UHGV virus genome: UHGV-0240317
DNA length: 64,000 nt
Strand: one strand, 5' to 3'
DNA from: a virus
Part shown: piece by piece, positions 5,178-43,549 of the stretch
How the letters are laid out: each line of letters opens with the position of its first letter
Position numbering within the stretch: position 1 is the stretch's first letter
The notes under the pieces: model-generated
Databases searched by the model: none
Seen by the model: the letters and a program-made list of their open reading frames with translations, nothing else
What the model was told of the DNA's origin: nothing
Position numbers and translations under genes: made by a program

Positions 5178-5919
5178 CTTGTTGTTCAGGTAAGTTCGCT
5201 AAGCTTACCCCGCTTTATTCAAGCTGCTTACTGTCGCCAGTAAGTCCAGACTATATCTTCTACTTATTTCTAAGTAGCGTACCATTTCGAGTCGCTTGAC
5301 CCTACACCGCTACATTCATCACGGTTAGTCGTTCGGCATTTAGATGTATTCAAACTCATATTCGAAGTTATTATGCTCTTTTACACCCTTCAATATTGAA
5401 GAGATGGTCTTGCGATTGTGTCCAAGTATATTGGATAACTCTCGTATTGACTTAGTAACAATAACTTCCTTTGTCACTTTGTGTGTGGCTTTCACGGCAT
5501 ATGAACGCTTGTGGAACTTGTAGCACCCGTTCTCATAACCCTCTTTAGCATTCTCAGAATGAGTACCCCATTCTAAGTTGGATGCGTGGTTATTTAGTTT
5601 GTTATCGTCCTTATGTTTTACAATTGGAAGATTATTTGGGTTAGGTACATATTTCTCAGCAACTAACCTGTGGACATACATGTCACGATTCTTCTTACCG
5701 TAAAACCTCACTTTCATATACCCAGTGTTGGATTTCCACTGCGTAAGCTCTACACCATTTTCCCTAAAGACTTTTCTATCTTCAGTGACGTGATAGTTTG
5801 GCATGTAAGACTCCTATGTTGTATAGTTTCTTACATCGTACATCATTTAGCACAGGATTGTCTACATCTGTAGAGTTTCCCTGTTTAGGCACGTTTTAGA
5901 TGAGCTATAGAGCTTGTTA
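5178..5919 (-). mobile_element. group I self-splicing intron in nrdD (with embedded HNH homing endonuclease ORF)
   Basis: Exon 1 ends with U (…AUGGGU|UAA), intron ends with G (…CUGAACAACAAG|); core elements CTAAACAGGGAAACTCTACAGATGTAGACAATCCTGTGCTAAAT and GTAGGGTCAAGCGACTCGAAATGG ... ATATAGTCTGGAC closely resemble the T4 td/nrd group IA2 intron core as remembered. Confidence 0.8.
5340..5804 (-). CDS. HNH homing endonuclease (intron-encoded)
   Basis: 154 aa; HNH motif HKDDNKLNNHASNLEWGTHSEN; ATG with AGGAG RBS; lies inside nrdD intron. Confidence 0.75.
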   Translation of the reverse strand: MPNYHVTEDRKVFRENGVELTQWKSNTGYMKVRFYGKKNRDMYVHRLVAEKYVPNPNNLPIVKHKDDNKLNNHASNLEWGTHSENAKEGYENGCYKFHKRSYAVKATHKVTKEVIVTKSIRELSNILGHNRKTISSILKGVKEHNNFEYEFEYI

Positions 5920-7116
5920 ACCCATCGGTGAAATAACCTTACCAGAACGCTCAAAAGCCTCTGCTACAGCACCATGACCAGATACACTTAAGAAGTCTGG
6001 ATACATTGCTTTAGAGCAACACTCAATAGCTTTACTGTACAGGTGACTTTGACAGATATTTTCATCATGTCTCTTCTGGTCATAAATATAAACCAGTTTA
6101 GGGAATACAACAGGTTTTTTGCTCTTGCCTTGTCCATTCATACGAACATCTAGGAGAGTACTTGCAATCATGTATTGTAGTCGATTATCCTCATTAGACA
6201 TATCTGAGTCAAGTAAACCAAATGTTAAAGTTGTGAATGCAAAATCACCACGGCTACAAGGTACGGTATTTAGTTTCATCTCAAGTGACTGAAAACCTTG
6301 AGTCAGTTCAATTTGTAACTGCTCCATTACATAATTGTGGTAATGCTCTTTAGGAATACCATAAGATGATGCTTTCTCAGCATGATAGCGTAGAGACTTC
6401 TTAGCATACGGTACAAGTACCTTATCAATCTCTGCTAAAGTAAAACCACCAAATTGCTGTGCAGTTGCTGAAAGTACTACGTCACCAATAACCTGCAACG
6501 CTGACAGTACAGATTTAGGTTCACAGTACTCAATGCCGGACATTTCAAAGCCACCTTTTAGTACTTTACCAATGTCAAACAGGCAACAGTTAATACCACC
6601 AAAAATCAGGTCTCTCAAATCGTGGATATAGATAAAGCCTTTCTCAATGGCTTCAAGTTCCTCTGGTGTTAGATGATACTGTTTAAAGATTTCTTTAGTC
6701 AGGTAACCACGGATAATTGAACCTTTCGTAGAAATTAAACTGCTGTCAAAGTTAGCATTTTCACGGTCACCTAAGAAGAGTGTATCTTTGGTCTTCTGGT
6801 AAAGCTCATCCCAATTTTGAGCAACTTCTTTACGGTAATTTCTATATGTTGAGTAAGACTCATAAATCTCGTGATTGACTTCTGCCAAAGCACCCTCAAC
6901 AATACTGTGAATATCATTTACAGAAATTAGCAAATTATTCTGCTTAGTGGACTTTACCAGAATCCTCATAAATGCTGACTCAAGAGCTTGGGTAACATCT
7001 GGTGGAAGTTCTTTATATCCAACCCTGTTAGCTGACTTTGTGACTGCTGCTAAAACTTTTTTGATATCAGGTTCTTCAAGTGAGCCATTCTTTTTAATAA
7101 TCTGTACTTTGTTCAT
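5920..7116 (-). CDS. nrdD: anaerobic ribonucleoside-triphosphate reductase, exon 1 (N-terminal ATP-cone and catalytic core)
   Basis: 399 codons starting MNKVQIIKKNGSLEEPDIKKV (ATP-cone-like); ends ...YPDFLSVSGHGAVAEAFERSGKVISPMG immediately before intron-borne stop. Confidence 0.8.
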
Positions 7117-7130
7117 TATTACCCCTTTAC

Positions 7131-7156
7131 ATGCTAAAAAGGTCTCCGAAGAGACC
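7131..7156 (-). terminator. hairpin with UUCG tetraloop (GGTCTC ttcg GAGACC) plus U-run, immediately upstream of nrdD
   Basis: Inverted repeat 7141-7156 followed on minus strand by UUUUUAGCAU. Confidence 0.45.
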
Positions 7157-7164
7157 CTTTCATT

Positions 7165-7371
7165 TTAAATCTTTTTAGAAAACTTCGCAAAGAGTTCTCT
7201 TAGTTTTTCAGCGATACCTAACTGTATCTCTAATATTTCGAAGATAACCCATAGTAACATGGCTCCAAACAATGAACCTTGTTCAAAGTCAGTAAATAGG
7301 TTAACGATAAGCATACCAATCACAATAGCTGGTGCATCAACAACCAAACCTTCCCAAATGCGTTTAAGCAT
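7165..7371 (-). CDS. hypothetical small membrane protein
   Basis: 68 aa, hydrophobic core VVDAPAIVIGMLIVNLF. Confidence 0.4.
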   Translation of the reverse strand: MLKRIWEGLVVDAPAIVIGMLIVNLFTDFEQGSLFGAMLLWVIFEILEIQLGIAEKLRELFAKFSKKI

Positions 7372-7606
7372 TATTCACCTCTGCCATAAAATTCTGTAGC
7401 GTACCAACAGGTTTTAGGTTTTGTCCATCAGTTTTCATGATGAATGGCATCTGACGAACTGGCATCTGTGCAATATCCATCAGGTCTGATAGTTCATAGT
7501 CCTGCCCTAACATTCTCACAACATGGTCAATACCACGAGCTTTTGCAAAATTCTTTGCAGTCTCACACTGAGGGCATCCAGTTTTGGAGTAAATTACATA
7601 AGTCAT
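7364..7606 (-). CDS. glutaredoxin/thioredoxin-like redox protein (RNR hydrogen donor)
   Basis: 80 aa; CPQC active-site motif near N-terminus; sits between nrdB and nrdD. Confidence 0.65.
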   Translation of the reverse strand: MTYVIYSKTGCPQCETAKNFAKARGIDHVVRMLGQDYELSDLMDIAQMPVRQMPFIMKTDGQNLKPVGTLQNFMAEVNNA

Positions 7607-8679
7607 TAAGGAACCTCTAAAAATCCACTATTCAAATCATCTACAACAGTATTCAACAGGTACGCACCGTTCTGTTGCTCCTGATTAGCATTCTGCTCTT
7701 TATCAATTTCCATCTTCTTAATCATGTACTTCAAAGGTGGTTCTTTAGGAGCTACAAAATCTCTGGGAATGCCAAACATATCATACAGTGGTGCAGCATT
7801 ATAGTAAACCCACTCATGAAGAAGCTTTGTATTTAAGCCAACTACAGCACGTCCTTCGGAGAAGATATAATACGACCATTTCTCTTCACTTTCAACTACT
7901 TCATCTAAGATTACTTTAATCTCTGGAAGAATTTGTTGAAAAGCTTTCTGCCATTCATCATCTCTTAAAGTTTCTTTTAAAACTTCAATATCAATTTTAG
8001 TGTGAAGGATTTCGTCAAGCATAATTTTCTGAACAGCTTGAGCAATACCCTGAAATTTATCTTGAGCATCAAGTGCAAAAGTACATGCAAAGGATGCCAT
8101 AAAAGATATGCCTTCAAGTGCAGTCACTGCAAATAGACCTTTCAGAATCACTTTATGGAAGTGTAAAGGGTCTTTGTCCAGAAGTGAATCACGGACATAA
8201 CTCAGTCGATAGTTTATACCTTCATCCAGTAATTCTTCAAGAACACGATTCACAGTTTTTAATCGGTCTTGTACAGCAATGTTCTGGTTAATCTCATCTA
8301 AGATTGTTTCAGGATTTTTAATACACTGTCTTACAATCTCCGAGTAAGTAAGAGCATGTAGGTTTTCAATCTCAGACTGCTTCATAATTGCAGTTGCATA
8401 GATGTCATCAGAGATGAATGGTGCAAAAGCAAACGCTAAACTCTTAGCAACTTGGGTATCTGCTTCCCACTGCCACTTAAGAATCTCAAGCATTACACCT
8501 GACATTGATGCTGGTACACTCTCAAAATCAAGACGTGATTGTTCAAAAGGGAACTCATCTTCTGACCAGTCTTGTGCTTTTTGTTGTTTATAGAGTTCAA
8601 AGATTTTTGGGTAGTGCTTGTTAAGTGAGTCAAATGTCTTTCTCTCACCACCTAAAAAGATTGGGTGCTGGTTAATCAT
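7606..8679 (-). CDS. nrdB: ribonucleotide reductase class Ia small (beta) subunit
   Basis: Ferritin-like small-subunit sequence; ATG at 8679 overlaps upstream stop (ATGA); follows nrdA. Confidence 0.75.
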   Translation of the reverse strand: MINQHPIFLGGERKTFDSLNKHYPKIFELYKQQKAQDWSEDEFPFEQSRLDFESVPASMSGVMLEILKWQWEADTQVAKSLAFAFAPFISDDIYATAIMKQSEIENLHALTYSEIVRQCIKNPETILDEINQNIAVQDRLKTVNRVLEELLDEGINYRLSYVRDSLLDKDPLHFHKVILKGLFAVTALEGISFMASFACTFALDAQDKFQGIAQAVQKIMLDEILHTKIDIEVLKETLRDDEWQKAFQQILPEIKVILDEVVESEEKWSYYIFSEGRAVVGLNTKLLHEWVYYNAAPLYDMFGIPRDFVAPKEPPLKYMIKKMEIDKEQNANQEQQNGAYLLNTVVDDLNSGFLEVP

Positions 8680-8933
8680 AGCGTGATTTCTCCTTTCTTT
8701 ATCATTTCTAAGGCTTGTTTTCTGTCTAAAACTTCCCAATTTTCTTTGTTAAACATCTCATAAGGTCTTGCATAGATTTTACCATCTGCTGTAGAGATGT
8801 AAGAGATACCAGCAACCCATGAGTCATCATTTTGTTTTATCATCATGTCTGTGCTACTCACATAGTACATCGTTTTCCGAGGCTTGTGGAGCAAGTATAT
8901 TGGTCGCTCATGTTTTTCTATTAAATCTTTCAT
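8676..8933 (-). CDS. hypothetical protein between nrdA and nrdB (start uncertain)
   Basis: ORF 8676-9017 overlaps nrdA end; internal Met MKDLIEKHERP at 8933 chosen. Confidence 0.35.
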   Translation of the reverse strand: MKDLIEKHERPIYLLHKPRKTMYYVSSTDMMIKQNDDSWVAGISYISTADGKIYARPYEMFNKENWEVLDRKQALEMIKKGEITL

Positions 8934-8988
8934 GGTCTCTCCAAAGTTATTTTTAGAGGGTCTTTTACGACCCTCATAGTTATTAAAA

Positions 8989-11223
8989 CTAAACACCACA
9001 ACCCTCGCAATAGGCATCTTGCAGTGCAGACTTACCTACACCGATGCGACTGTTAAGGTAGTACATGGTTTTCATACCTACCGAGTTGGCATAAATCATG
9101 TACTTCAAAGCTTGAGCCAATGATACCTTCTTAGACTTTGCATAGTCAACATAGAAGTCTGAAGAGATAGCTTGACCAGTGAACTTTTGAACAATTGCAT
9201 AACAATCAATCAGGTCAAAGGTGTCAATACCCCAAGCAATTTCATATACATACTTCAACTCTTCATAATCTGGAACAATAAACAGTACATTACCAGTTGC
9301 AGACTTTTTAGTTAAAATAAAGTCACGAATTGGGTACAATCCATTTGTTGTATTAGTCGCCAGTGAAGAACTCTCATTAGGCATATAAGCCTCAAGTACA
9401 GAGTTTCGGATTCCACCATTTTCTTTGATACGTTGTGCTAAGTCATCCCAATCATATCGTAGTTTTGCATCATGCTTTTCATCAATCTTCTTGTTGGCTG
9501 TCTTTGGAGGAACCCAGCCTTCAGGATACTTAGTGAACTTCATGTACTCTGGAACTCCACGCTCTTTAGCAAGTCTCAGAGAGGCTTCGTGTAAGTAGTA
9601 AGAGTGCATTTCAGCAAGCTCATGAAGCTTCGTCTTACCTGCTCTTGAAGAGTAGTTCACGTAGTTTTTTGCAAGGTAATGAGCCACATTTGTAAGGCCA
9701 ATACCAACAGAACGACGCTTCTGAACATGGTTACGCATCGACGGATACGGATAATCCATAAGGTCAATAACGGAGTCAACCATTGCAAGAGCATAATAAG
9801 CAACGTCAGCGTATTCATCTTCTGAAATTCTCCCTGCAACCAAACTAGCTAGGAAGCAAAGAGCTACCTCACCATCCTCTTTCACAGCATCATCTCTGTA
9901 AAGGTCTGTCTCTTTCTCAAAGCCGTACACTGGCAACACAATTTCCATACAAAGATTTGACATCTTCAAAGGTTCTTTAAATGGCGTATGTGTGTTTGCA
10001 TTATTCGTGAAGAATGGGTACACACGGCCTGTTGCATAACGCTGCTGGATAAACAGTTTAGCAATTTCACGAGCCTTTACTCGTCTGTGCTTAACACCTG
10101 AATGGACTGCGTGACCAACTGCCATAGCAAACTCATCAGCAGATGCTGTGTAGAACATGTCATAGAGTTTTGGTGCATCCTTGTAAGAGAATAGCAACCA
10201 GTCTGTATCATATTGAACACACTGCCAGAAATAATCATTTGTACCAAATGAGTAGTCCATCTCGTTAATACGTTTCGAAGGAACCGTTGTAGGGTGCTTC
10301 AAACGCAGTAAATCTTCAATCTGCGGGTCTAGAGCAGTATAGAAGTTGTTAGCTGAACCACCACGACTCTTCTGTTTGTTTGCCTCTACAGATGAACGTA
10401 CAAGCTTGTAATAAGGTAGCTTACCCATGTGTTCAATAGTATTTTGACGGATACCATCACCAATAGTGCGAGTCTCCATCAGCATCCCGATACCAGCTTG
10501 CTTTGTAGTCATATCATAAGCAACCTTTGCAGCAATACCGAGAGATTCAGCGGTATCATTCGCCTTAATCAAACAGCATGACGCATAACCTGATTTAGTG
10601 GCTCTTAAACCATTCAGGTAAGGAGTAGGAGCGTTAATCTTCAGGTCAGATAGGTAAGTGTACAGCTTGATAACATCTTGCAGTCTACGGTGCTTTGGTT
10701 GCTTCTCAAAGGCTTTCATAGCCATACCCATAAACATAAATTGTGGTGACTCAAAAAGTCTTCCCGTTTTAATATCACGGATACCATACTTGTCTCTGAA
10801 CTGTTTCAGGACTGCATAACCATAAGAGATATCTTTTGAGTGCACAATGTACCCTTGCAGGTATTCAAGCTCTTCCTGAGAATAGTCCATCTTCTCCCAA
10901 AGTCCTGCTCTCTCCATATTTTTAACGAAGGTAACCAGCGTAGGAACCTTAGTAAAACCTCCAAAGGCTTCTTTGTAGATAATTCCCAGAAGTAGCCGTC
11001 CAGCCATATCTGAGTACTCTTGAGTTTGTTTATCAACACAAACATCAATCATGGCTTGGTGCATCTCTTTTGTAGTGCAACCTTCATAGACACGTTTCAT
11101 GGCTTCCATAGTGACTTCTGACCAGATGATTCCGCGCTTATCTGCCCATGATGCCCACTTATTCAGTCTTTCTGGGTCAAAGCTTACTACTGTACCGTTT
11201 GATTTTTTAATTGTCTTAATCAT
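8989..11223 (-). CDS. nrdA: ribonucleotide reductase class Ia large (alpha) subunit
   Basis: 744 aa; N-terminal ATP-cone, C-terminal cysteine pair YCEGCGV typical of class I large subunits. Confidence 0.85.
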   Translation of the reverse strand: MIKTIKKSNGTVVSFDPERLNKWASWADKRGIIWSEVTMEAMKRVYEGCTTKEMHQAMIDVCVDKQTQEYSDMAGRLLLGIIYKEAFGGFTKVPTLVTFVKNMERAGLWEKMDYSQEELEYLQGYIVHSKDISYGYAVLKQFRDKYGIRDIKTGRLFESPQFMFMGMAMKAFEKQPKHRRLQDVIKLYTYLSDLKINAPTPYLNGLRATKSGYASCCLIKANDTAESLGIAAKVAYDMTTKQAGIGMLMETRTIGDGIRQNTIEHMGKLPYYKLVRSSVEANKQKSRGGSANNFYTALDPQIEDLLRLKHPTTVPSKRINEMDYSFGTNDYFWQCVQYDTDWLLFSYKDAPKLYDMFYTASADEFAMAVGHAVHSGVKHRRVKAREIAKLFIQQRYATGRVYPFFTNNANTHTPFKEPLKMSNLCMEIVLPVYGFEKETDLYRDDAVKEDGEVALCFLASLVAGRISEDEYADVAYYALAMVDSVIDLMDYPYPSMRNHVQKRRSVGIGLTNVAHYLAKNYVNYSSRAGKTKLHELAEMHSYYLHEASLRLAKERGVPEYMKFTKYPEGWVPPKTANKKIDEKHDAKLRYDWDDLAQRIKENGGIRNSVLEAYMPNESSSLATNTTNGLYPIRDFILTKKSATGNVLFIVPDYEELKYVYEIAWGIDTFDLIDCYAIVQKFTGQAISSDFYVDYAKSKKVSLAQALKYMIYANSVGMKTMYYLNSRIGVGKSALQDAYCEGCGV

Positions 11224-29360: not shown

Positions 29361-29621
29361 ATGAAAATTGAACACTGCTATGAGTCTGATGGAACACCTA
29401 TCCGTTGTCCACATTGTGGGTGTACAGACTTACAAGGTGAGGTAAGTGAAATAGTCAACGGTCATATTGCTGAAGAAAGTACCCGATGCACAGGGTGTAA
29501 TGAAATTATCGCTTTCTGGGCTTATGGTTCATACCAACCATCTCCACATTTTATCTACCATCGTAGTAAAGTTGTGAAGAGTGTCATCAACTGGTTCATT
29601 AAGAAAGGGTTTACAAAATGA
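29361..29621 (+). CDS. hypothetical zinc-ribbon protein
   Basis: CPHCGC ... CTGC cysteine pairs. Confidence 0.45.
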   Translation: MKIEHCYESDGTPIRCPHCGCTDLQGEVSEIVNGHIAEESTRCTGCNEIIAFWAYGSYQPSPHFIYHRSKVVKSVINWFIKKGFTK

Positions 29622-30163
29622 TTAAACTAATATTTGCAAGTGGTGAAAACGGTGAATTTGGTACACCGACTGGTATGCCGTGGCCTCGACATAAGCAAGA
29701 TATGCAAGAGTTTAAGAGACTCACTAAAAACAACTTAGTAGTGATGGGTAATGAGACTTTCAAGACTCTGGGGGGTAAGCCTTTACCAGAACGTGCAAAC
29801 CTCATCTTAACAAATTCTGTACCATACTTAGGCATAGACTTTGGCAAAGATGATGTAATGTATGCTAAAGCCAGTAAAGAGTCATTTGGAGCATTTTTGA
29901 AGTATCTTGATAGCTCTATTGATGAAGATGTCTTTGTAATTGGTGGCGCAGGTGTCCTTGTCGATGCTTTACCGTATGCTGATGTAGTGTTCCATACTGT
30001 TTTCCATAAAGTTACTGAAGAGGTCACTGTGTATTTACCTTTTGAGAACTTCTTTGAGAAGCTGTATGATAACCGTGTATTTACAAAGGTGCAGTCAAGA
30101 CCCTCAGATGATGGTAAAGCAACCTTTGAAATTTATGTTCCACAAGTAAAAGGACACTTTTGA
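29618..30163 (+). CDS. frd: dihydrofolate reductase
   Basis: 181 aa; IFASGENGEFG, GMPW and VVMGNETFKTLG motifs characteristic of DHFR. Confidence 0.8.
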   Translation: MIKLIFASGENGEFGTPTGMPWPRHKQDMQEFKRLTKNNLVVMGNETFKTLGGKPLPERANLILTNSVPYLGIDFGKDDVMYAKASKESFGAFLKYLDSSIDEDVFVIGGAGVLVDALPYADVVFHTVFHKVTEEVTVYLPFENFFEKLYDNRVFTKVQSRPSDDGKATFEIYVPQVKGHF

Positions 30164-30164
30164 T

Positions 30165-31064
30165 ATGTCACAAGCAGATTCAAGTTACAAAAATATCCTG
30201 AACCATGTTTTATCCGTTGGTGAACTGCGTACTACACGAACTGGAGACGTTATCTCTGCATTTGCTCCACCACAATTTCGTTTTGATATGAGAACTGGTT
30301 TCCCACTCTTAACATCTAAACAGGTGTTTACACGGCAAGTTATTGGGGAAGCTTTATGGTTCCTGAATGGTGAGAATAAACTTGGTGAACTCCGTTACCG
30401 TACTTGGGGTGAAAATGACGGAGAACGTTGGACTATCTGGTCAGATGATTTTAAACGATGGCTAAGTTCTAATTATTCTTCTGAACAAGATTGGTTAGAA
30501 GATGCAGGTGGGAGAATCTATGGGGTCCAGTGGAGAAACTTCGAAGGTCATAATGGTTGTGTTGTAGACCAGTTAGAGACCTTAGTAACGAAGATGAAGG
30601 GTGATATCACAGACCGTTACATGCTTGTTAATGCTTGGAATGCAGCAGATATTGCAGCAAACTCAATGGCTTTAGCACCTTGTCATGTTCTGTTTCAGAT
30701 TTATATAACTAATGAAGGTGAAGTGGATTTGCAATGGTATCAGCGTTCTGTAGACACCTTTTTAGGACTTCCGTTTAACATTGCGTCTTATGGCTTCATC
30801 TTAGAAGTTCTTTGCAAGATGACTGGATACACTCCACGGTACTTGATAGGTGTCTTTGGAGATACTCAGATTTATCAGAACCATATGAAGCAGGTTTATG
30901 AACTGATGAACAATGAAGAGTTCCATGCACCTACTTTTGAGATTGGTGTACAGCTTAACACTTTAAGTGACTTAAAACATCTTACTGCAAGTGACTTTAT
31001 TGGTGGAATTAACAACTACCAACATGCAGGGAAGATTGAAGCACCTTTGTCAGTAGGTAAATAA
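30165..31064 (+). CDS. td: thymidylate synthase
   Basis: 299 aa; LAPCHVLFQIY active-site cysteine motif and FPLLTSKQVF folate-binding region. Confidence 0.85.
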   Translation: MSQADSSYKNILNHVLSVGELRTTRTGDVISAFAPPQFRFDMRTGFPLLTSKQVFTRQVIGEALWFLNGENKLGELRYRTWGENDGERWTIWSDDFKRWLSSNYSSEQDWLEDAGGRIYGVQWRNFEGHNGCVVDQLETLVTKMKGDITDRYMLVNAWNAADIAANSMALAPCHVLFQIYITNEGEVDLQWYQRSVDTFLGLPFNIASYGFILEVLCKMTGYTPRYLIGVFGDTQIYQNHMKQVYELMNNEEFHAPTFEIGVQLNTLSDLKHLTASDFIGGINNYQHAGKIEAPLSVGK

Positions 31065-31069
31065 AACAA

Positions 31070-31098
31070 AAAAGGCTCCCGTCAAAAGGAGCCTTAAA
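31070..31098. terminator. bidirectional intrinsic terminator between convergent td and minus-strand genes
   Basis: AGGCTCC cgtcaaa GGAGCCT flanked by A-run upstream and T-run downstream. Confidence 0.6.
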
Positions 31099-31101
31099 AT
31101 T

Positions 31102-31473
31102 TTATTTTTCAGTATTCTTTGTGTTCTTCTCAGTAATAGCTTGGAGGGCTGATACTGATTGAGCCAGATTATTCACACTGTCAGAGAATTTATCAAGAGT
31201 TTTGGTAAGTTTTGCGTTTTCACCCTTAACATTCTCTAACTGAACTTTCTGGTTCTCCATCCCTAACTGAATCAGTCTCATGTCAGACTGTAAATCACGA
31301 ATAGCTAAATAGTTACTTTTGGAATAATTATCGAGCTGCTGTAACTTTGTTGTGACAGACACTTCTTGTTTACCACTTGAAACTTGCATCGTGGTATACA
31401 TCCCAATAACACTAAAAATACCAACTACAATTGCACCAATATTATTTTTAAAAGCTTCCTCTAGCCACTTCAT
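31102..31473 (-). CDS. hypothetical membrane-anchored coiled-coil protein
   Basis: N-terminal TM (IGAIVVGIFSVIGMY) then coiled coil. Confidence 0.4.
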   Translation of the reverse strand: MKWLEEAFKNNIGAIVVGIFSVIGMYTTMQVSSGKQEVSVTTKLQQLDNYSKSNYLAIRDLQSDMRLIQLGMENQKVQLENVKGENAKLTKTLDKFSDSVNNLAQSVSALQAITEKNTKNTEK

Positions 31474-31667
31474 TTATTCTCCCCCTTAAAAGCTTTTTCT
31501 AAGTTATCTACGAACTCATCATCAATAGGTGTGTCTGTTTTACTCGCAAGGTATCTTGCAAGCTTAAAGAACACTTTCTCAATCATGTATTCACTTAGAA
31601 GGGATAAAATGAGTTTCCAGAAGAAGCTACCTAGATTTTTTAGAAGAATTGCTAGGATTGTAGGCAT
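31470..31667 (-). CDS. hypothetical small membrane protein
   Basis: 65 aa, N-terminal hydrophobic segment. Confidence 0.35.
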   Translation of the reverse strand: MPTILAILLKNLGSFFWKLILSLLSEYMIEKVFFKLARYLASKTDTPIDDEFVDNLEKAFKGENK

Positions 31668-31746: not shown

Positions 31747-34314
31747 TTAAGCAGTTCTTACCCAAGCCATTAACTTGTAGAACTGGTTAGTAACACTAAA
31801 TGCTGAACCAGAACCTGTACCACCAGTGTTACCACTAACTGTATGAGTGTGAGCACCGATACCTACAGAGTGGGAATGGTCGCCAGCACCACTTGTAGTA
31901 CCAGACCATGTATGTGTATGGTTGCCAGTTGTGTTAGTGTTAGGGAATTTATTGTCCCTTCTGTCAAGCCAGTCAAGTGTTCTAGGGAGACTGTTACCAA
32001 TGGTTGTATAACCGTACAAAGCATCACCACCATTAACCAATAGTAGACCTAAGTGGTGAGCGTGGTCACCAGCAGCACTTGTTGTACCACTTACAGAGTG
32101 AGTGTGTCCACCAGTACTATTAGTTCCCTTCGTACCATAATCAAAAGATGAAGTAGTTGCAGAGAAACTATGAGTGTGTGATGGTAAGTTACCAACAGCT
32201 AACGTCACAGAATCTGAACCACCTGTTGTAGCAACATCTGAACCGTTTGCTGCTGCAATTCTGATAGTTCTACCAACACCATTGTTCAGGTACGTCCAAG
32301 TTAACCCAGGCAACGCTGTGTTAGGGTTAACATTACTGTTAAACCACGTTACAATACCAACTGGGTAGATTTTATTAAGGTCTGTAGAGTCACTTACTGC
32401 CTGTGCAATCTTCTGGTCAGTCTCAGCTTTAGTGTATGCACCGATATCTGAAGGGGTTGGTTTTTGCATACTTGTGTAGTATTTTGCAACAGTGCCTTTA
32501 ACAATACCTTGTGGTGCATCATCAAATGTTTGTGGAGTTTCAAACAACTGTACACTTGCATTACTAGAAGACTGAACTCTTGTTGTTGTCCCATTTTGGG
32601 AATTACCAACTCTACAGTAGATATCATAAGTATCACCAGACGTATTCACATAACCAATGTCACTGATAAGATTATTCTTCGAGACTCTCCAAGCTACAGC
32701 GTTTAGACCCTTCGGTCTGTTATTTGATGTTCTCAAGACAATCTCACACTTACCTGCCTGATGTGGTGTATTAGCCTTAAAACCTGACCCACCAAATACT
32801 TCAATCACCGCAGTGGATGCAGCTTGTGGCATCACAACAGTAGCAAGTTTAGCCCACTTGTCAGTGCTTCCTTTATTGAAGCCAGTACTTCTGATTCTCA
32901 AATATCTCTCATCACTAGTACTTTGGGTGAAGTATCTCCCATCAATGTTAGTCCAATCAGAAGGTCGAACTTGACCAATGATGCTCAATGTTTTATTGAT
33001 AACAGCGATACTAGATAGAATAACTTCACAATCTGTCTTGTGATTGCGAATGGTAACATCATCACTCCCTGAGCCATTACCTACATACCACCTGTAAGCA
33101 CCAGTGCTGTCCTGACCTCTAATGTACAATGGTGAGTTCTCAGAAGAGTTTTTTAACCTAATGGCTTCACCGTTTGCTTGAATAATTTGTTGGAAAGTGA
33201 AAGTGTTAGCCACATTAATCTTAGCAAGATTACTCAAAGTAGCTGCTGGAATGTATCTAGAGTCAATGTTAGCCCAATCAGAAGGTTGAACTTGACCAAC
33301 GACTTTAAGTTGCTTATTAACCTTAACATAACCATTGTCGAGTCTAAGATTAGAACCATACGTATAGTTGTGGATTAATACAGCAGGTGTATTATCACCA
33401 TTACCTACATACCACTTACCAGAGCCATCATTAGCTTCGCCTTTAATGTACAGTGCACCATTAGCTACAGTATTTTTTAACCTTAAGGCTGCACTATTCG
33501 TCTCAATTGATAGGATTTGATTAAATGTATTCACGCCTCTAAAGGTATTATCACCAGATAACTGTGCAAACCTCTGATTAGCTGCTGTCTGAGTAAAATA
33601 CCTAGCATCTAAGTTAGTCCAATCAGAAGGTCGAACTTGACCAGTGATTTGAATTGATTTATTCACAGAGATTAGGTTAGCTAAAATAGCTACGTATGCA
33701 CCAGATTTAACGTTTTTTAAAACAAGGTTGTCTGTGCCTTTATTATCATTGCCTAGATACCATCTGTTAGTACCATCTGCATCTTGACCACGAATATACA
33801 GCGGCATTCCTTGTGTAATATTCTTAACAATAAGAGCTTTATTGTCAGAGAGAATAGCTTGAGTACCTCTAAATGTGTTATTTACAGCTAATCTTGAGTA
33901 TCTTGCATCATTTTCTTCATTAGTTCTCATCCCAAGTTCATTAGGACTTGGTTTATTCAGAGTATGATAAACAGTTGCTGACCTTGAAGCATCTGCAATA
34001 GTCAGTTTAAGACCATTTGCGTTGATTTTAAAAGTCTTTAAAACATCCCCGATATTAATCTCAGAAGAGCCTGTTGGGTTAAATACTACCTTACCACCAT
34101 AAAGTAACTTAACAATTCCTAAGTCACCCGTCATAGTGCTACCAGCAATCTGAACAAATCTTTCAAGTTTAAAAGAAGCTAAGAAATCTCGATAGGTCAT
34201 TCGACGGTCTTCATCGCCAAGCATTTCAGGTCTCTTTTTAACTCTGACATGAAGAAGGTCATCTGAACGGATTGTATCGATTGAGTTTAATTCACTCAAC
34301 TTGTAATCTGCCAT
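31747..34314 (-). CDS. tail fibre protein with internal tandem repeats and C-terminal His-rich (HxH) module
   Basis: 855 aa; three ~98-aa repeats; C-terminus HTHSFS...GHTHSVSG...DHAHH...NHTHTWSG...[17 protein letters not shown] ending AWVRTA. Confidence 0.7.
32994..33885. repeat. three in-frame tandem repeats (~294 bp each) inside tail fibre gene
   Basis: Protein repeats ...LYI(R/K)G(Q/E)..G..(R/K)WY(L/V)GN...GQV(R/Q)PSDW(T/A)N(L/I)D.RY...; antisense ORF-track peptides 32824-33018 and 33178-33378 are near-identical. Confidence 0.6.
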
Positions 34315-34319
34315 TATAA

Positions 34320-34349
34320 ATTTTCCTCTTAAAAGGGGCTATCAAGCCC
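34320..34349 (-). terminator. hairpin (GGGGCT tgata AGCCCC) + U-run upstream of tail fibre gene
   Basis: Inverted repeat 34334-34349, minus strand followed by UUUUAAGAGG. Confidence 0.45.
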
Positions 34350-34360
34350 CTGTAAAGAAA

Positions 34361-35548
34361 TTAAGCTGTTCTCTGCCATACATAAAGTACGAAGGATGGC
34401 TGCTCAATGTTAAAAGCTTGTCCACCACCAACTCTGTTAGTGTTCCCGCTATGCGTATGCTCAGAAGAAGAAACTGTTACAGTACCATTGTGTGTATGTG
34501 AACCAATACCAACCGTATGGCTGTGAGCACCAATACCAACCGTGTGGTTGTGGTTACCAGTCGTGTTAGTGGTCACACTGAAAGAGTGGGCATGTGAACC
34601 AGCAACTTCACAGACAGCATCTGCTGAGTACCATGATTGGTCATTCCTTGAAGACCAAACCATTGCAGGTCTTTCCGATAAACCACCACCTGCTTCATAG
34701 GTCAATCTGTGGTTGTGAGCACCAGCCGCATTTGTTGACCCACTACCCACATGGTTGTGGTTACCAGTCGTGTTAGTGGTCTTTGTTCCATAGTCAAAAG
34801 AGTTGGTAGTCTTAGTTCCATAATCAAAAGCTGAAATTGACACCGTTGCATTATGGGTGTGACCACCGCCACTAAGAGACACAGAGTGTGAGTGTTGTGG
34901 CATGTTATTAACTGACAAAGTGACAGTTGAAGCACCAAATACAGAGCCTGCTGGTCTTGTATCAGAGTCATAACCAACCAATGCTCTACCTTTTGAAACT
35001 AACTCCCAAGTTCCTCCACAAATTAAATACGTAGAAGGGTTTGCAGAGTTCATGGAAAGATGGATAGTACCTACTGGATAAGAAGCCTGAACAGCCTTGT
35101 ACAAGTTATTTACTGCTCTTGCTGTAGCATACTTATCTGCATCTTCGTTATAAAGGTTCGATGTTGTCCAGTTCTGGACATTGCGCAACCCTACCTGTGC
35201 CTTAGTTGTATTGTGTGGGTTGCTCTTGTCCTGAATATGCTGTTGAACAAGATTATTAACCTCTTCTGAAGACATAATCTGTAGATTTGCTCTTGCCTGA
35301 GCTACATTAGTAACGTCTGATAAGTTATTTGCAGCAACTAACTGAAGAGCATTAATAACATTATCTAAACCAATTTGTGTTTTAGTAACACCATGAGGGT
35401 TATTTCTTAGGCTTGAGTGTGGAGCAAGTAATTGCTCAAGAGTGCACCTCTTATCCTCAATACCCTGCTTAAGATGGAAGATATCACTAAGGTCAATTGG
35501 TAAGGCTGCTTGAGGCAAGGCACTAATTTGAATTTCACCTACTGCCAT
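34361..35548 (-). CDS. tail fibre protein paralog sharing C-terminal His-rich module
   Basis: 395 aa; C-terminus HSHSVSLSGGGHTHN...FDYGTK...NHNHVG...AHNHR...SHAHSFS...HNHTVGIGAHSHTVGIGSHTHNG ending VWQRTA. Confidence 0.65.
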   Translation of the reverse strand: MAVGEIQISALPQAALPIDLSDIFHLKQGIEDKRCTLEQLLAPHSSLRNNPHGVTKTQIGLDNVINALQLVAANNLSDVTNVAQARANLQIMSSEEVNNLVQQHIQDKSNPHNTTKAQVGLRNVQNWTTSNLYNEDADKYATARAVNNLYKAVQASYPVGTIHLSMNSANPSTYLICGGTWELVSKGRALVGYDSDTRPAGSVFGASTVTLSVNNMPQHSHSVSLSGGGHTHNATVSISAFDYGTKTTNSFDYGTKTTNTTGNHNHVGSGSTNAAGAHNHRLTYEAGGGLSERPAMVWSSRNDQSWYSADAVCEVAGSHAHSFSVTTNTTGNHNHTVGIGAHSHTVGIGSHTHNGTVTVSSSEHTHSGNTNRVGGGQAFNIEQPSFVLYVWQRTA

Positions 35549-35550
35549 TA

Positions 35551-43548
<7,998 letters not shown>

Positions 43549-43549
<1 letters not shown>

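Follow-up and report, generated by a model that had tools for sequence, protein, structure and literature searches.

The window, a 64-kb stretch of a phage genome of about 88 kb, carries two adjacent fibre genes on the minus strand whose open reading frames were located exactly, one for a short tail fibre of 395 aa (STF, 34361..35548) and one for a long tail fibre of 855 aa (LTF, 31747..34314). A megablast search matched the window to 269 phage records, mostly Escherichia and Salmonella phages of the Felixounavirus type with genomes of about 84-90 kb, Felix O1 among them, and on its sequence it is assigned to a Felixounavirus, a Felix O1-like myovirus. In the cryo-EM study of Escherichia phage JohannRWettstein (Bas63), published in Sci Adv in 2025, gp26 is the short and gp27 the long tail fibre (PMC12609058); STF is the orthologue of gp26 (74% identical), with PDB 2XGF as its structural reference, and LTF is the orthologue of gp27, matching PHROG 4277 over aa 1-855.

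The block of genes for proteins of 489 aa, 285 aa and 100 aa, STF, LTF, proteins of 65 aa and 123 aa, td and frd is syntenic with Bas63 gp23-gp31 and also with Felix O1, and the proteins flanking the fibres are 95-98% identical to their Bas63 counterparts. The 100-aa protein (35551..35853, minus strand) is 98% identical to its orthologue Bas63 gp25, a platform protein for the long fibre and a T4 gp9-like attachment point (role from PMC12609058). Baseplate wedge 1 (285 aa, 35853-36710) and baseplate wedge 2 (489 aa, 36713-38182), both on the minus strand, are 95% and 97% identical to Bas63 gp24 and gp23, respectively; the wedge region (35853..38182, minus strand) matches Pfam Baseplate_J, and in Bas63 wedge 2 is the attachment point of the short fibre (PMC12609058). 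STF has full-length homology to Felixounavirus short fibres and lies between the platform protein and LTF, while LTF follows STF and combines full-length homology to the long fibres with a conserved N-terminus and three PF20744 units. We consider it highly probable (about 0.93) that the two genes encode the short and long tail fibres of a Felix O1-like phage, each with a T4 gp37-type tip.

The short tail fibre

All segments of STF lie on the minus strand. The N-terminal region (aa 1-145, 35114..35548) contains helix-and-turn segments and two NPHxxTKxQxGLxNV motifs, and would bind the baseplate, to judge from the description of Bas63; AF2 predicts helices at aa 67-106 and 143-156. The collar domain follows (aa 146-218, 34895..35113; Pfam Gp10_C, E 1.4e-18; pLDDT 80-90), aligning both to the 2XGF collar and to the C-terminal domain of T4 gp10. 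The descending needle strand (aa 219-280, 34709..34894) has four HxH motifs and holds a 30-bp x2 duplication, located at 34772-34830 by Tandem Repeats Finder. The head cassette (aa 281-318, 34595..34708), the presumed receptor contact, is the most variable part of the protein, with the lowest conservation among 73 homologues (0.21-0.31), and its type is present in 32 phage records, all of them Felixounavirus. The ascending needle strand with the conserved C-terminus ...VWQRTA (aa 319-395, 34364..34594), delimited by motif and by alignment to 2XGF, carries five HxH motifs; NHNHTVGIGAHSHTVG corresponds to aa 332-347, the end reads ...YVWQRTA, and W391 and R393 are invariant.

The AF2 monomer of STF had a mean pLDDT of 67, with the head below 50, and Foldseek found no match to it in the PDB at E <= 0.001; the best matches were T4 gp10, Bizionia C24 and the Pa223 fibre, with E values of 0.01-0.3. 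These neighbours raise the question of whether STF might be a baseplate protein akin to T4 gp10 instead of a receptor-binding fibre, the more so as Gp10_C (E 1.4e-18) is its sole Pfam match and gp10 chains are its best structural neighbours beyond 2XGF by both Foldseek and phmmer. The gp10 similarity, however, is limited to the collar (aa 144-220), whereas the other 175 aa have their counterpart in the needle and head of gp37 (E 4.5e-26). STF also matches PHROG 2097, 'tail fiber protein', over its full length (E 1.3e-135), and Bas63 gp26 was seen as a 430-Å fibre (PMC12609058), all of which makes a gp10-like baseplate protein extremely improbable.

The long tail fibre

LTF, whose segments likewise lie on the minus strand, begins with a conserved N-terminal baseplate-binding region and first shaft segment (aa 1-143, 33886..34314), weakly similar to the N-terminus of STF and at least 93.7% identical to the query in 120/120 homologues. 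Three repeats, each matching PF20744, come next: R1 (aa 144-253, 110 aa, 33556..33885), R2 (aa 254-367, 114 aa, 33214..33555) and R3 (aa 368-474, 107 aa, 32893..33213). The linkers between the shaft modules, of the form GQVxPSDWxNxDxRY, are conserved. The middle domain cassette (aa 475-612, 32479..32892) is predicted by AF2 to consist of beta strands throughout (pLDDT 65-85) and is common to several tail-fibre PHROGs. It differs in type from that of Felix O1 and Bas63, no similarity to either LTF being found along the segment; PF12604, the middle domain of Felix O1 LTF, is absent from LTF here. A linker helix and collar domain (aa 613-712, 32179..32478) with a weak Gp10_C match is at least 93% identical to the query in 120/120 homologues.

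The needle and head segment common to Tequatrovirus gp37 spans aa 719-826 (coding nt 2157-2477, 31838..32158) and includes the motif GHTHSVSG (aa 736-743). Within it, the head cassette (aa 744-812, with the head proper at aa 754-798; 31879..32085) is replaced relative to Felix O1 and Bas63. The ascending needle strand (aa 813-855, 31750..31878), with two HxH motifs and the conserved C-terminus ...MAWVRTA, was recognised by its motifs and by conservation among homologues. In the AF2 monomer of LTF, the N-terminus and the whole tip (aa 613-855) have pLDDT below 50, which leaves the repeats and the middle domain as its usable parts.

HxH needle tips and their homology to T4 gp37

The tip segments contain nine HxH motifs in STF (aa 219-366) and six in LTF (aa 713-824), far above residue shuffles of the same segments, in which the means were 1.6 and 1.0 and the observed counts were attained in 0/20000 and 3/20000 cases, respectively. 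An earlier note on this DNA had reported HxH-rich C-termini in both proteins, and these are present, as are the motifs it quoted and the termini AWVRTA in LTF and VWQRTA in STF. Searched against the PDB with phmmer, STF aa 146-367 (E 4.5e-26) and LTF aa 711-834 (E 1e-22) both matched 2XGF, the T4 gp37 tip. In alignments with the T4-type gp37 of BYEP01, which has seven HxH motifs, STF keeps all seven and has two extra, and LTF keeps six in register, three descending and three ascending.

In 2XGF, the structure of Bartual et al. from 2010, the HxH motifs of the T4 gp37 tip reportedly coordinate iron ions inside a trimeric needle. The 2XGF match and the register of the motifs establish homology between the His-rich ends and the receptor-binding tip of T4 gp37, and the view of the earlier note that they are of the metal-coordinating receptor-binding type is borne out at this level. 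The needle fold of both tips is likewise predicted from the alignments, the low-confidence monomer models not being its basis.

The C-terminal modules of the two fibres also align with each other (33% identity, 282 columns, E 7e-22). Their description as paralogs in the earlier note is apt in so far as STF and LTF have in common the tip and, more weakly, the N-terminal attachment region (E 0.001). It does not suit the needle and head of LTF, which are 93.5% identical in amino acid sequence to a Tequatrovirus gp37, that of BYEP01, but only about 33% identical to the STF of the same phage.

This arrangement bears on the idea that STF and LTF are the proximal and distal halves of one jointed fibre, like T4 gp34 and gp37. 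The genes are adjacent and co-oriented, and the shaft of LTF is similar to T4 gp34, which forms the proximal half-fibre. Nevertheless, in each protein both the attachment-type N-terminus and the gp37-type tip are complete, the tip ending in the same C-terminal motif, and cryo-EM of Bas63 and Sf14 revealed two distinct sets of fibres that are each attached to the baseplate (PMC12609058, PMC11821841). A jointed fibre is therefore hardly credible, and we proceed with two separate fibres.

Shaft repeats and copy number

Pfam PF20744 matches LTF three times (E 7e-58), and Smith-Waterman comparison of repeat against repeat gave z-scores of 29-50 against shuffles. The units are 35-47% identical at the amino acid level and 51-56% at the nucleotide level, and are visible at the protein level only, Tandem Repeats Finder having detected no array of about 330 bp in the DNA. 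Three tandem repeats had been proposed before, and there are three, with units of 107-114 aa instead of the ~98 aa given; the array, placed at ~32994-33885, extends about 100 nt further at its lower end and spans 32893-33885. An HMM built from 241 distinct units and run at relaxed thresholds found only these three in LTF and STF, with no further degenerate unit. For Bas63, five beta-helix repeat domains have been counted (PMC12609058), a number that is not confirmable by sequence, since the profile HMM detects three homologous units only.

The repeats were modelled in the AF2 monomer with pLDDT 70-90. Foldseek matched the repeat region to T4 gp34 over about 465 columns (4UXG, E 1.8e-4; 5NXH, E 6e-4) and to T7 gp17 (4A0T, E 2e-3, probability 1.00), at a sequence identity of 11-13% and with a monomer model of what is expected to be an intertwined trimer. 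In phmmer, LTF matched chain positions 55-120 of T7 gp17 (4A0T, E 2e-3). With modest confidence, these models suggest that the units have a gp34 / T7 gp17 pyramid-type shaft fold.

It had been proposed in the earlier note that the copy number of the repeats could vary and alter host range, and the tandem arrangement might be seen as a device for frequent gain and loss of units, with effects on fibre length and host range. In agreement with this, the unit profile found Ounavirinae-type LTF homologues with five units (P0241, 1015 aa) and four units (P0242, 901 aa), the former within a fully syntenic fibre module, and R1 and R3 have one identical 31-nt run in register. The comparison of copy number that the earlier note asked for, however, gave exactly three units in 120/120 of the closest homologue clusters (795-858 aa), as also in Bas63 and Felix O1, and the repeats lie in the shaft, not in the tip. 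Units that are 51-56% identical in nucleotides and not detected by Tandem Repeats Finder offer little substrate for slippage or unequal crossover. Moreover, the extra copies of the five-copy protein are ancient, its closest two units having no more than 60% identity. The four- and five-copy versions are confined to distant uncultured Ounavirinae; no sequenced isolate with such an LTF was found, the best phage records being three-copy Felixounaviruses at 41-49% identity. Neither high nucleotide identity between units nor a copy number differing among close relatives, as expected of contingency-type repeats, was observed, and a copy-number device is very unlikely. A further candidate explanation, that docking on the sheath fixes the length of the fibre, is weakened by the five-copy relative, whose tape measure is of similar size (743 aa, compared with 735 aa for the candidate of the window).

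Cassette replacement

Variation in LTF proceeds through cassette replacement and not through repeat number. The N-terminus, the collar and the needle strands are at least 84% identical, and most segments at least 90%, in 120/120 homologues; R1-R3, the middle domain and the head form discrete allele classes in the same set, with head identity distributed bimodally (20-40% or 80-100%). Some types of repeat unit are found at different positions among LTFs, and the R3 type occupies position R1 in eight other LTFs. At the DNA level, the match to Felix O1 LTF is interrupted between coding nt 2229 and 2435. Over 321 nt, the needle and head are 91.0% identical to gp37 of phage sutha and 88.8% to that of BYEP01. 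About 30 Felixounavirus and six Tequatrovirus phages carry this head cassette. The concept of recombination at 'His boxes' goes back to Tétart and Krisch in the 1990s; the term is absent from the open literature searched.

The high variability of the shaft also bears on the question of where specificity resides. Among the 120 homologues, variability is greatest in R1-R3 and the middle domain, with identity down to 0.19 at aa 421-440, so that specificity could lie mainly in these parts through lateral binding of surface glycans, with a minor role for the head. When a Felixounavirus was challenged with S. Infantis, variants at LTF aa 497 and 534, both within the middle domain, swept (PMC6669636), and the authors of the Sf14 study suggest receptor contacts proximal to the tip (PMC11821841). 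By contrast, it is the head that contacts the receptor in T4 (PMC12609058), and the head here is a discrete swapped cassette common to different phage families. A mainly lateral recognition seems improbable to us, and the head is retained as the likely principal contact.

Discussion

The observed homologies, anatomy, allele classes and cross-family identity are consistent with the following model. Each fibre would form a homotrimer, as do its homologues, the T4 gp37 tip and the Bas63 fibres, and would be fixed to the baseplate by its N-terminal domain; as suggested by the Bas63 cryo-EM, STF would be anchored to wedge protein 2 and LTF to the platform protein of 100 aa, whose gene lies immediately upstream. 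Beyond the collar domain, the chain would descend as the needle, make a small head domain and ascend again, and the HxH motifs of the three chains would stack into a column of metal ions, nine being predicted for STF and six for LTF. LTF corresponds to STF plus a shaft of about 470 aa, made of three gp34/T7-gp17-like beta modules (PF20744) with helix-and-turn linkers, followed by the beta-rich middle domain. The head at the far end would meet the surface of the host, the most probable contact being the LPS core, on which Felixounavirus phages depend (PMC8594841; PMC4690856). Host range would evolve by replacement of cassettes between the conserved linkers and the His-box flanks, not by a change in repeat number. 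The LTF head cassette of this phage is the same as in some Tequatrovirus gp37 proteins.

T4 gp37 requires the chaperones gp38 and gp57A. In tblastn searches of the window, which covers 64 kb of the ~88-kb genome, BYEP01 gp38, T4 gp57A and T4 gp57B gave nothing significant, and for gp38 and gp57A nothing fell below E 0.2, a search in which divergent chaperones could be missed. As the dedicated gp38 and gp57A of a gp37-type fibre were not found within the window, either folding must differ somewhat or a chaperone sits in the remaining ~24 kb, and the question arises of whether a gp37-type needle can fold without the T4 chaperones. A bolder reading, which we regard as possible but rather doubtful, is that of a cassette system with three zones, in which units move between positions, the middle domain and the head are replaced independently, and a gp37-type head works without a gp38 or gp57A homologue. 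If true, it would mean that the T4 chaperones are dispensable for the folding of a T4-type iron needle and head. In this reading, the hypervariable shaft modules may share in host recognition as well.

The LTF head appears to be interchangeable with the head of T4-like phages. The cassette map, with the N-terminus, collar and needle strands as constant parts and the three shaft units, middle domain and head as swappable ones, may be useful to engineer host range in Felix O1-type phages for therapy or diagnostics.

The finding of the fibres themselves is already known from the Bas63 paper of 2025, the Felix O1 GenBank record (AF320576), which carries the annotation 'putative tail fiber protein GP37', and the VpaE1 paper of 2015, which noted that both C-termini resemble gp37, that the N-terminus is conserved and that the middle varies (PMC4690856). 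Two gp37-like, HxH-tipped fibres and a repeat shaft are thus published for the genus (PMC12609058, PMC4690856), and Felix O1 ORF180/ORF184 and VpaE1 gp74/gp75 are orthologous fibre pairs. In Felix O1, the needle-plus-head regions of STF and LTF are 81% identical over 270 nt, whereas the two fibre genes of the window have no detectable nucleotide similarity.

Compared with T4-type gp37, both fibres of the window align in the collar, HxH needle, head and return strand and are unrelated outside the tip; a scan of one T4-type gp37, that of sutha, gave no PF20744 match. The seventh HxH is missing from LTF, as is the doubled DLGTKTT/FDYGTK motif, and LTF ends in MAWVRTA where T4-type gp37 has NYIVRLA. 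In BYEP01 and sutha, gp38 lies directly downstream of gp37, whereas no gp38 homologue was found in the window.

In Bas63 the two fibres form trimers of their own, which lie docked along the sheath and have gp37-like collar-needle-head tips and a gp34-like repeat rod (PMC12609058), and the related phage Sf14 has the same arrangement (PMC11821841). The window resembles Bas63 in genus and gene order, in three PF20744-type LTF units at the same positions, and in an LTF that outside the middle domain is 63-75% identical (63% over aa 1-472, 75% over aa 610-855). It differs from Bas63 in having nine HxH motifs in STF instead of seven, and an LTF of 855 aa instead of 784 aa, with another middle domain and a longer, Tequatrovirus-type head cassette.

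The fibre operon

The short tail fibre (STF, 395 aa) and the long tail fibre (LTF, 855 aa) are encoded on the minus strand at 34361-35548 and 31747-34314, respectively, with a gap of 46 nt between them. Both match PHROG families annotated 'tail fiber protein' over approximately their full length (phrog_2097 for STF, phrog_4277 for LTF). On the same strand, 5' of STF, lie ORFs of 100 and 285 aa and a 489-aa Baseplate_J protein, which are 98, 95 and 97% identical to the long-fibre platform (gp25), wedge 1 (gp24) and wedge 2 (gp23) of Escherichia phage JohannRWettstein (Bas63). STF is 74% identical to gp26, the short fibre of that phage, and LTF is 63% (aa 1-472) and 75% (aa 610-855) identical to gp27, its long fibre. 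The motif NPHxxTKxQxGLxNVxN occurs twice in the N-terminal half of STF (aa 46-66 and 107-127).

Downstream of LTF, minus-strand ORFs of 65 and 123 aa (31102-31667), 98 and 97% identical to Bas63 gp28 and gp29, are followed by a bidirectional terminator-like hairpin (31072-31095); the stretch from the LTF stop codon to these ORFs has no terminator-like site. A hydrophobic segment lies at the N-terminal end of both proteins, which belong to PHROG families without known function; by eye, the 123-aa one seems rich in coiled coil. They could be holin/spanin-like or fibre-assembly factors. Past the hairpin, the plus-strand frd (dihydrofolate reductase) and td (thymidylate synthase) genes (29618-31064) run towards the fibre operon, an arrangement shared with Felix O1 and Bas63; the order of the genes described here is the same in both phages. 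Megablast matched 269 phage records, mostly Felixounavirus-type Escherichia and Salmonella phages of ~84-90 kb, Felix O1 among them, and only 3 of the 269 covered more than 80% of the interval.

Two gp37-like tips

The HxH motifs and both C-terminal peptides quoted in the earlier note were all found in the STF and LTF sequences. LTF has six HxH motifs, all within aa 713-824, and STF has nine, within aa 219-366; shuffling the residues of the tip segments gave means of 1.0 and 1.6, and the observed count was met in 3 of 20000 shuffles for LTF and in 0 of 20000 for STF. STF and LTF are 33% identical in their C-terminal modules (E 7e-22), and their N-termini align weakly (23%, E 0.001). LTF aa 711-834 (E 1e-22) and STF aa 146-367 (E 4.5e-26) are similar in sequence to the T4 gp37 receptor-binding tip, whose crystal structure is 2XGF. 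The STF collar also resembles the T4 gp10 C-terminal domain, which is why Pfam Gp10_C matches it.

In the T4 tip, a collar is followed by a needle made of a descending stretch of chain, a head and a returning stretch, with iron coordinated by seven HxH motifs (PMC12609058). When aligned with the T4-type gp37 of the Tequatrovirus phage BYEP01, LTF keeps six of the seven motifs, and STF has all seven plus two extra ones, early in the descending strand (aa 230) and late in the ascending strand (aa 364), which would lengthen the needle at its collar-proximal end. With the motifs in register with gp37, the proposal that these C-termini are metal-binding fibre tips appears to be the correct reading, and a trimer would carry six metal sites in LTF and nine in STF. 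Monomer AF2 models of both tips were uninformative, so the needle argument stands on sequence homology. Six HxH motifs are present in all 120 LTF homologues, and nine in 50 of 73 Ounavirinae STF homologues (range 0-11).

A 30-bp tandem duplication (two copies, 86% match) at 34772-34830 on the minus strand repeats SFDYGTKTTN in the descending needle strand of STF (aa 240-259). The doubled motif (DLGTKTT / FDYGTKxT) also occurs in T4-type gp37, whereas LTF has a single copy.

The repeat shaft and its copy number

The three tandem LTF repeats previously noted are real, with pairwise Smith-Waterman z-scores of 29-50 and 30 invariant columns, but the units are somewhat longer than the ~98 aa proposed, and the array, placed at about 32994-33885 in the earlier note, spans 32893-33885. 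The units R1 (aa 144-253), R2 (aa 254-367) and R3 (aa 368-474) measure 110, 114 and 107 aa, share 35-47% amino acid and 51-56% nucleotide identity, and were missed at the DNA level by Tandem Repeats Finder. PF20744 matches LTF three times (E 7e-58) and the Felix O1 LTF likewise, and has no match in gp37 of the Tequatrovirus phage sutha, the T4-type gp37 scanned; hence the Pfam name 'gp37_trimer' appears to mirror the 'gp37' annotation of Felix O1.

R2 matches the T7 gp17 C-terminal structure 4A0T (phmmer, E 2e-3). The LTF monomer AF2 model is poor overall (mean pLDDT 54), with values of 70-90 in the three all-beta units and 65-85 in the middle domain (aa 480-610). Foldseek matched it to WceF (1.7e-7), to the T4 gp34 rod (4UXG, 5NXH and 4UXE, 2e-4 to 1e-3, ~465 columns) and to T7 gp17 (2e-3). 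These matches support the fibre-like fold that the earlier note set as a check, for the LTF shaft only.

The suggestion that the repeats serve as a copy-number device does not hold. An HMM made from R1, R2 and R3 found exactly three units in all 120 clusters of closest homologues (795-858 aa), and three in the Bas63 long fibre. When 1.84 billion cluster representatives were searched with a profile, other counts came up in distant Ounavirinae-type LTFs: five units in P0241 (1015 aa) and four in P0242 (901 aa), together with the three-unit P0245 (724 aa), which has 3 HxH motifs and a much shorter needle. The P0241 gene (8001-11048 of the 77-kb metagenomic Logan contig SRR22802239_169, five PF20744 units) lies in the order wedge, platform, STF, LTF, 65-aa, 122-aa, td, frd, as in the window, and the wedge protein is 72% identical to that of the window. 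Even the two most alike units of P0241 share just 60% identity, and no sequenced phage is more than 49% identical to P0241. The tape measure of the five-unit phage has 743 aa, against 735 aa for the candidate in the window (41342-43549), so fibre length is not simply tied to tail length. Unit number has changed over the evolution of the subfamily, without being fast-switching.

Proposed exchange of shaft units and heads

LTF was compared segment by segment with its 120 homologues. In all 120, identity to the query never falls below 90% in the N-terminus (aa 1-143), the collar (aa 613-712), the ascending needle strand or the C-terminus, nor below 84% in the descending needle strand. Discrete classes are seen for the three repeat units, the middle domain and the head: a unit has either ~35-50% or 70-100% identity to the query, the middle domain has <20% in the 795-aa class, and the head has 20-40% in the 839-846-aa class. 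The PF12604 domain found in Felix O1 and Bas63 shows no relationship to the middle domain of the window. At 65% identity the 360 units form 18 types, mostly position-specific, with some found at more than one position; 8 proteins have the R3 type of the window at R1, and identity reaches 88% in R2/R3 pairs. Conserved GQVxPSDWxNxDxRY linkers separate the variable blocks, and this pattern of variability suggests that recombination takes place in the linkers.

Over LTF coding nt 2157-2477 (aa 719-826; 31838-32158), identity is 91.0% to sutha gene 37 and 88.8% to BYEP01 gene 37, and at the protein level 93.5% to BYEP01 gp37. The DNA match with the Felix O1 LTF ends at nt 2229 and restarts at nt 2435, with none between, which delimits a swapped unit of about aa 744-812. 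Its flanks, FDYGTK...HTH and a 16-residue segment, are conserved in all three lineages. The LTF head cassette lies at 31879-32085 and the STF head cassette at 34595-34708. The LTF head type was found in 36 phage records, ~30 of Felixounavirus and 6 of Tequatrovirus, and the STF head type in 32, all of them Felixounavirus; among these 32 is every Felixounavirus record with the LTF head type. The two heads may be either co-inherited or functionally coupled. Among the hosts recorded for the ~30 Felixounavirus carriers of the LTF head type are E. coli O145, O121 and O1 strains as well as Shigella sonnei.

In the Felix O1 fibre genes (5566-9131 of the Felix O1 locus, compared with 31747-35548 of the window), the needle-plus-head parts of STF and LTF are 81% identical over 270 nt, an identity that suggests intragenomic exchange; no nucleotide similarity between STF and LTF was detectable in the window. 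The term 'paralogs' is therefore fair for the architecture of the two fibres, but their tips have been exchanged independently.

Proposed function and comparison with known fibres

Felixounaviruses need the LPS core, and not protein receptors (PMC8594841; PMC4690856; 10.64898/2026.04.02.716166). Most likely, infection follows four steps: both fibre sets would be stored along the sheath, the fibres would extend, their heads would bind LPS-core structures, and a signal through the platform and wedge proteins would trigger contraction. Of this, only the anatomy and homology of the fibres are shown here; the attachment sites would by analogy be those of Bas63, and we infer the binding of receptor and metal. 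In a single short evolution experiment (PMC6669636), variants in the LTF middle domain swept, so the shaft may share in host recognition.

The finding of two fibres with gp37-like tips is correct and already described. The Felix O1 GenBank record names both genes 'putative tail fiber protein GP37', and Simoliunas et al. 2015 reported homology of both VpaE1 fibre proteins to the T4 gp37 adhesin. The two fibres of Sf14 measure 430 Å and 630 Å and have T7 gp17-like and T4 gp37-like parts; the phage is without Mu-type chaperones (PMC11821841). Cryo-EM of Bas63 revealed a short and a long fibre docked along the sheath; both have a gp37-like collar, needle and head with HxH motifs, and a baseplate-binding domain that is conserved (PMC12609058). 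To these reports our analysis makes modest additions: a map of cassettes with position-shuffled shaft units; relatives with four and five units; a Tequatrovirus-type head, which in BYEP01 and sutha has the gp38 assembly protein encoded directly downstream of gene 37, in a window where no gp38 or gp57A homologue is detectable (~24 kb of the genome lie beyond it); and an STF with nine HxH motifs, compared with seven in Bas63.
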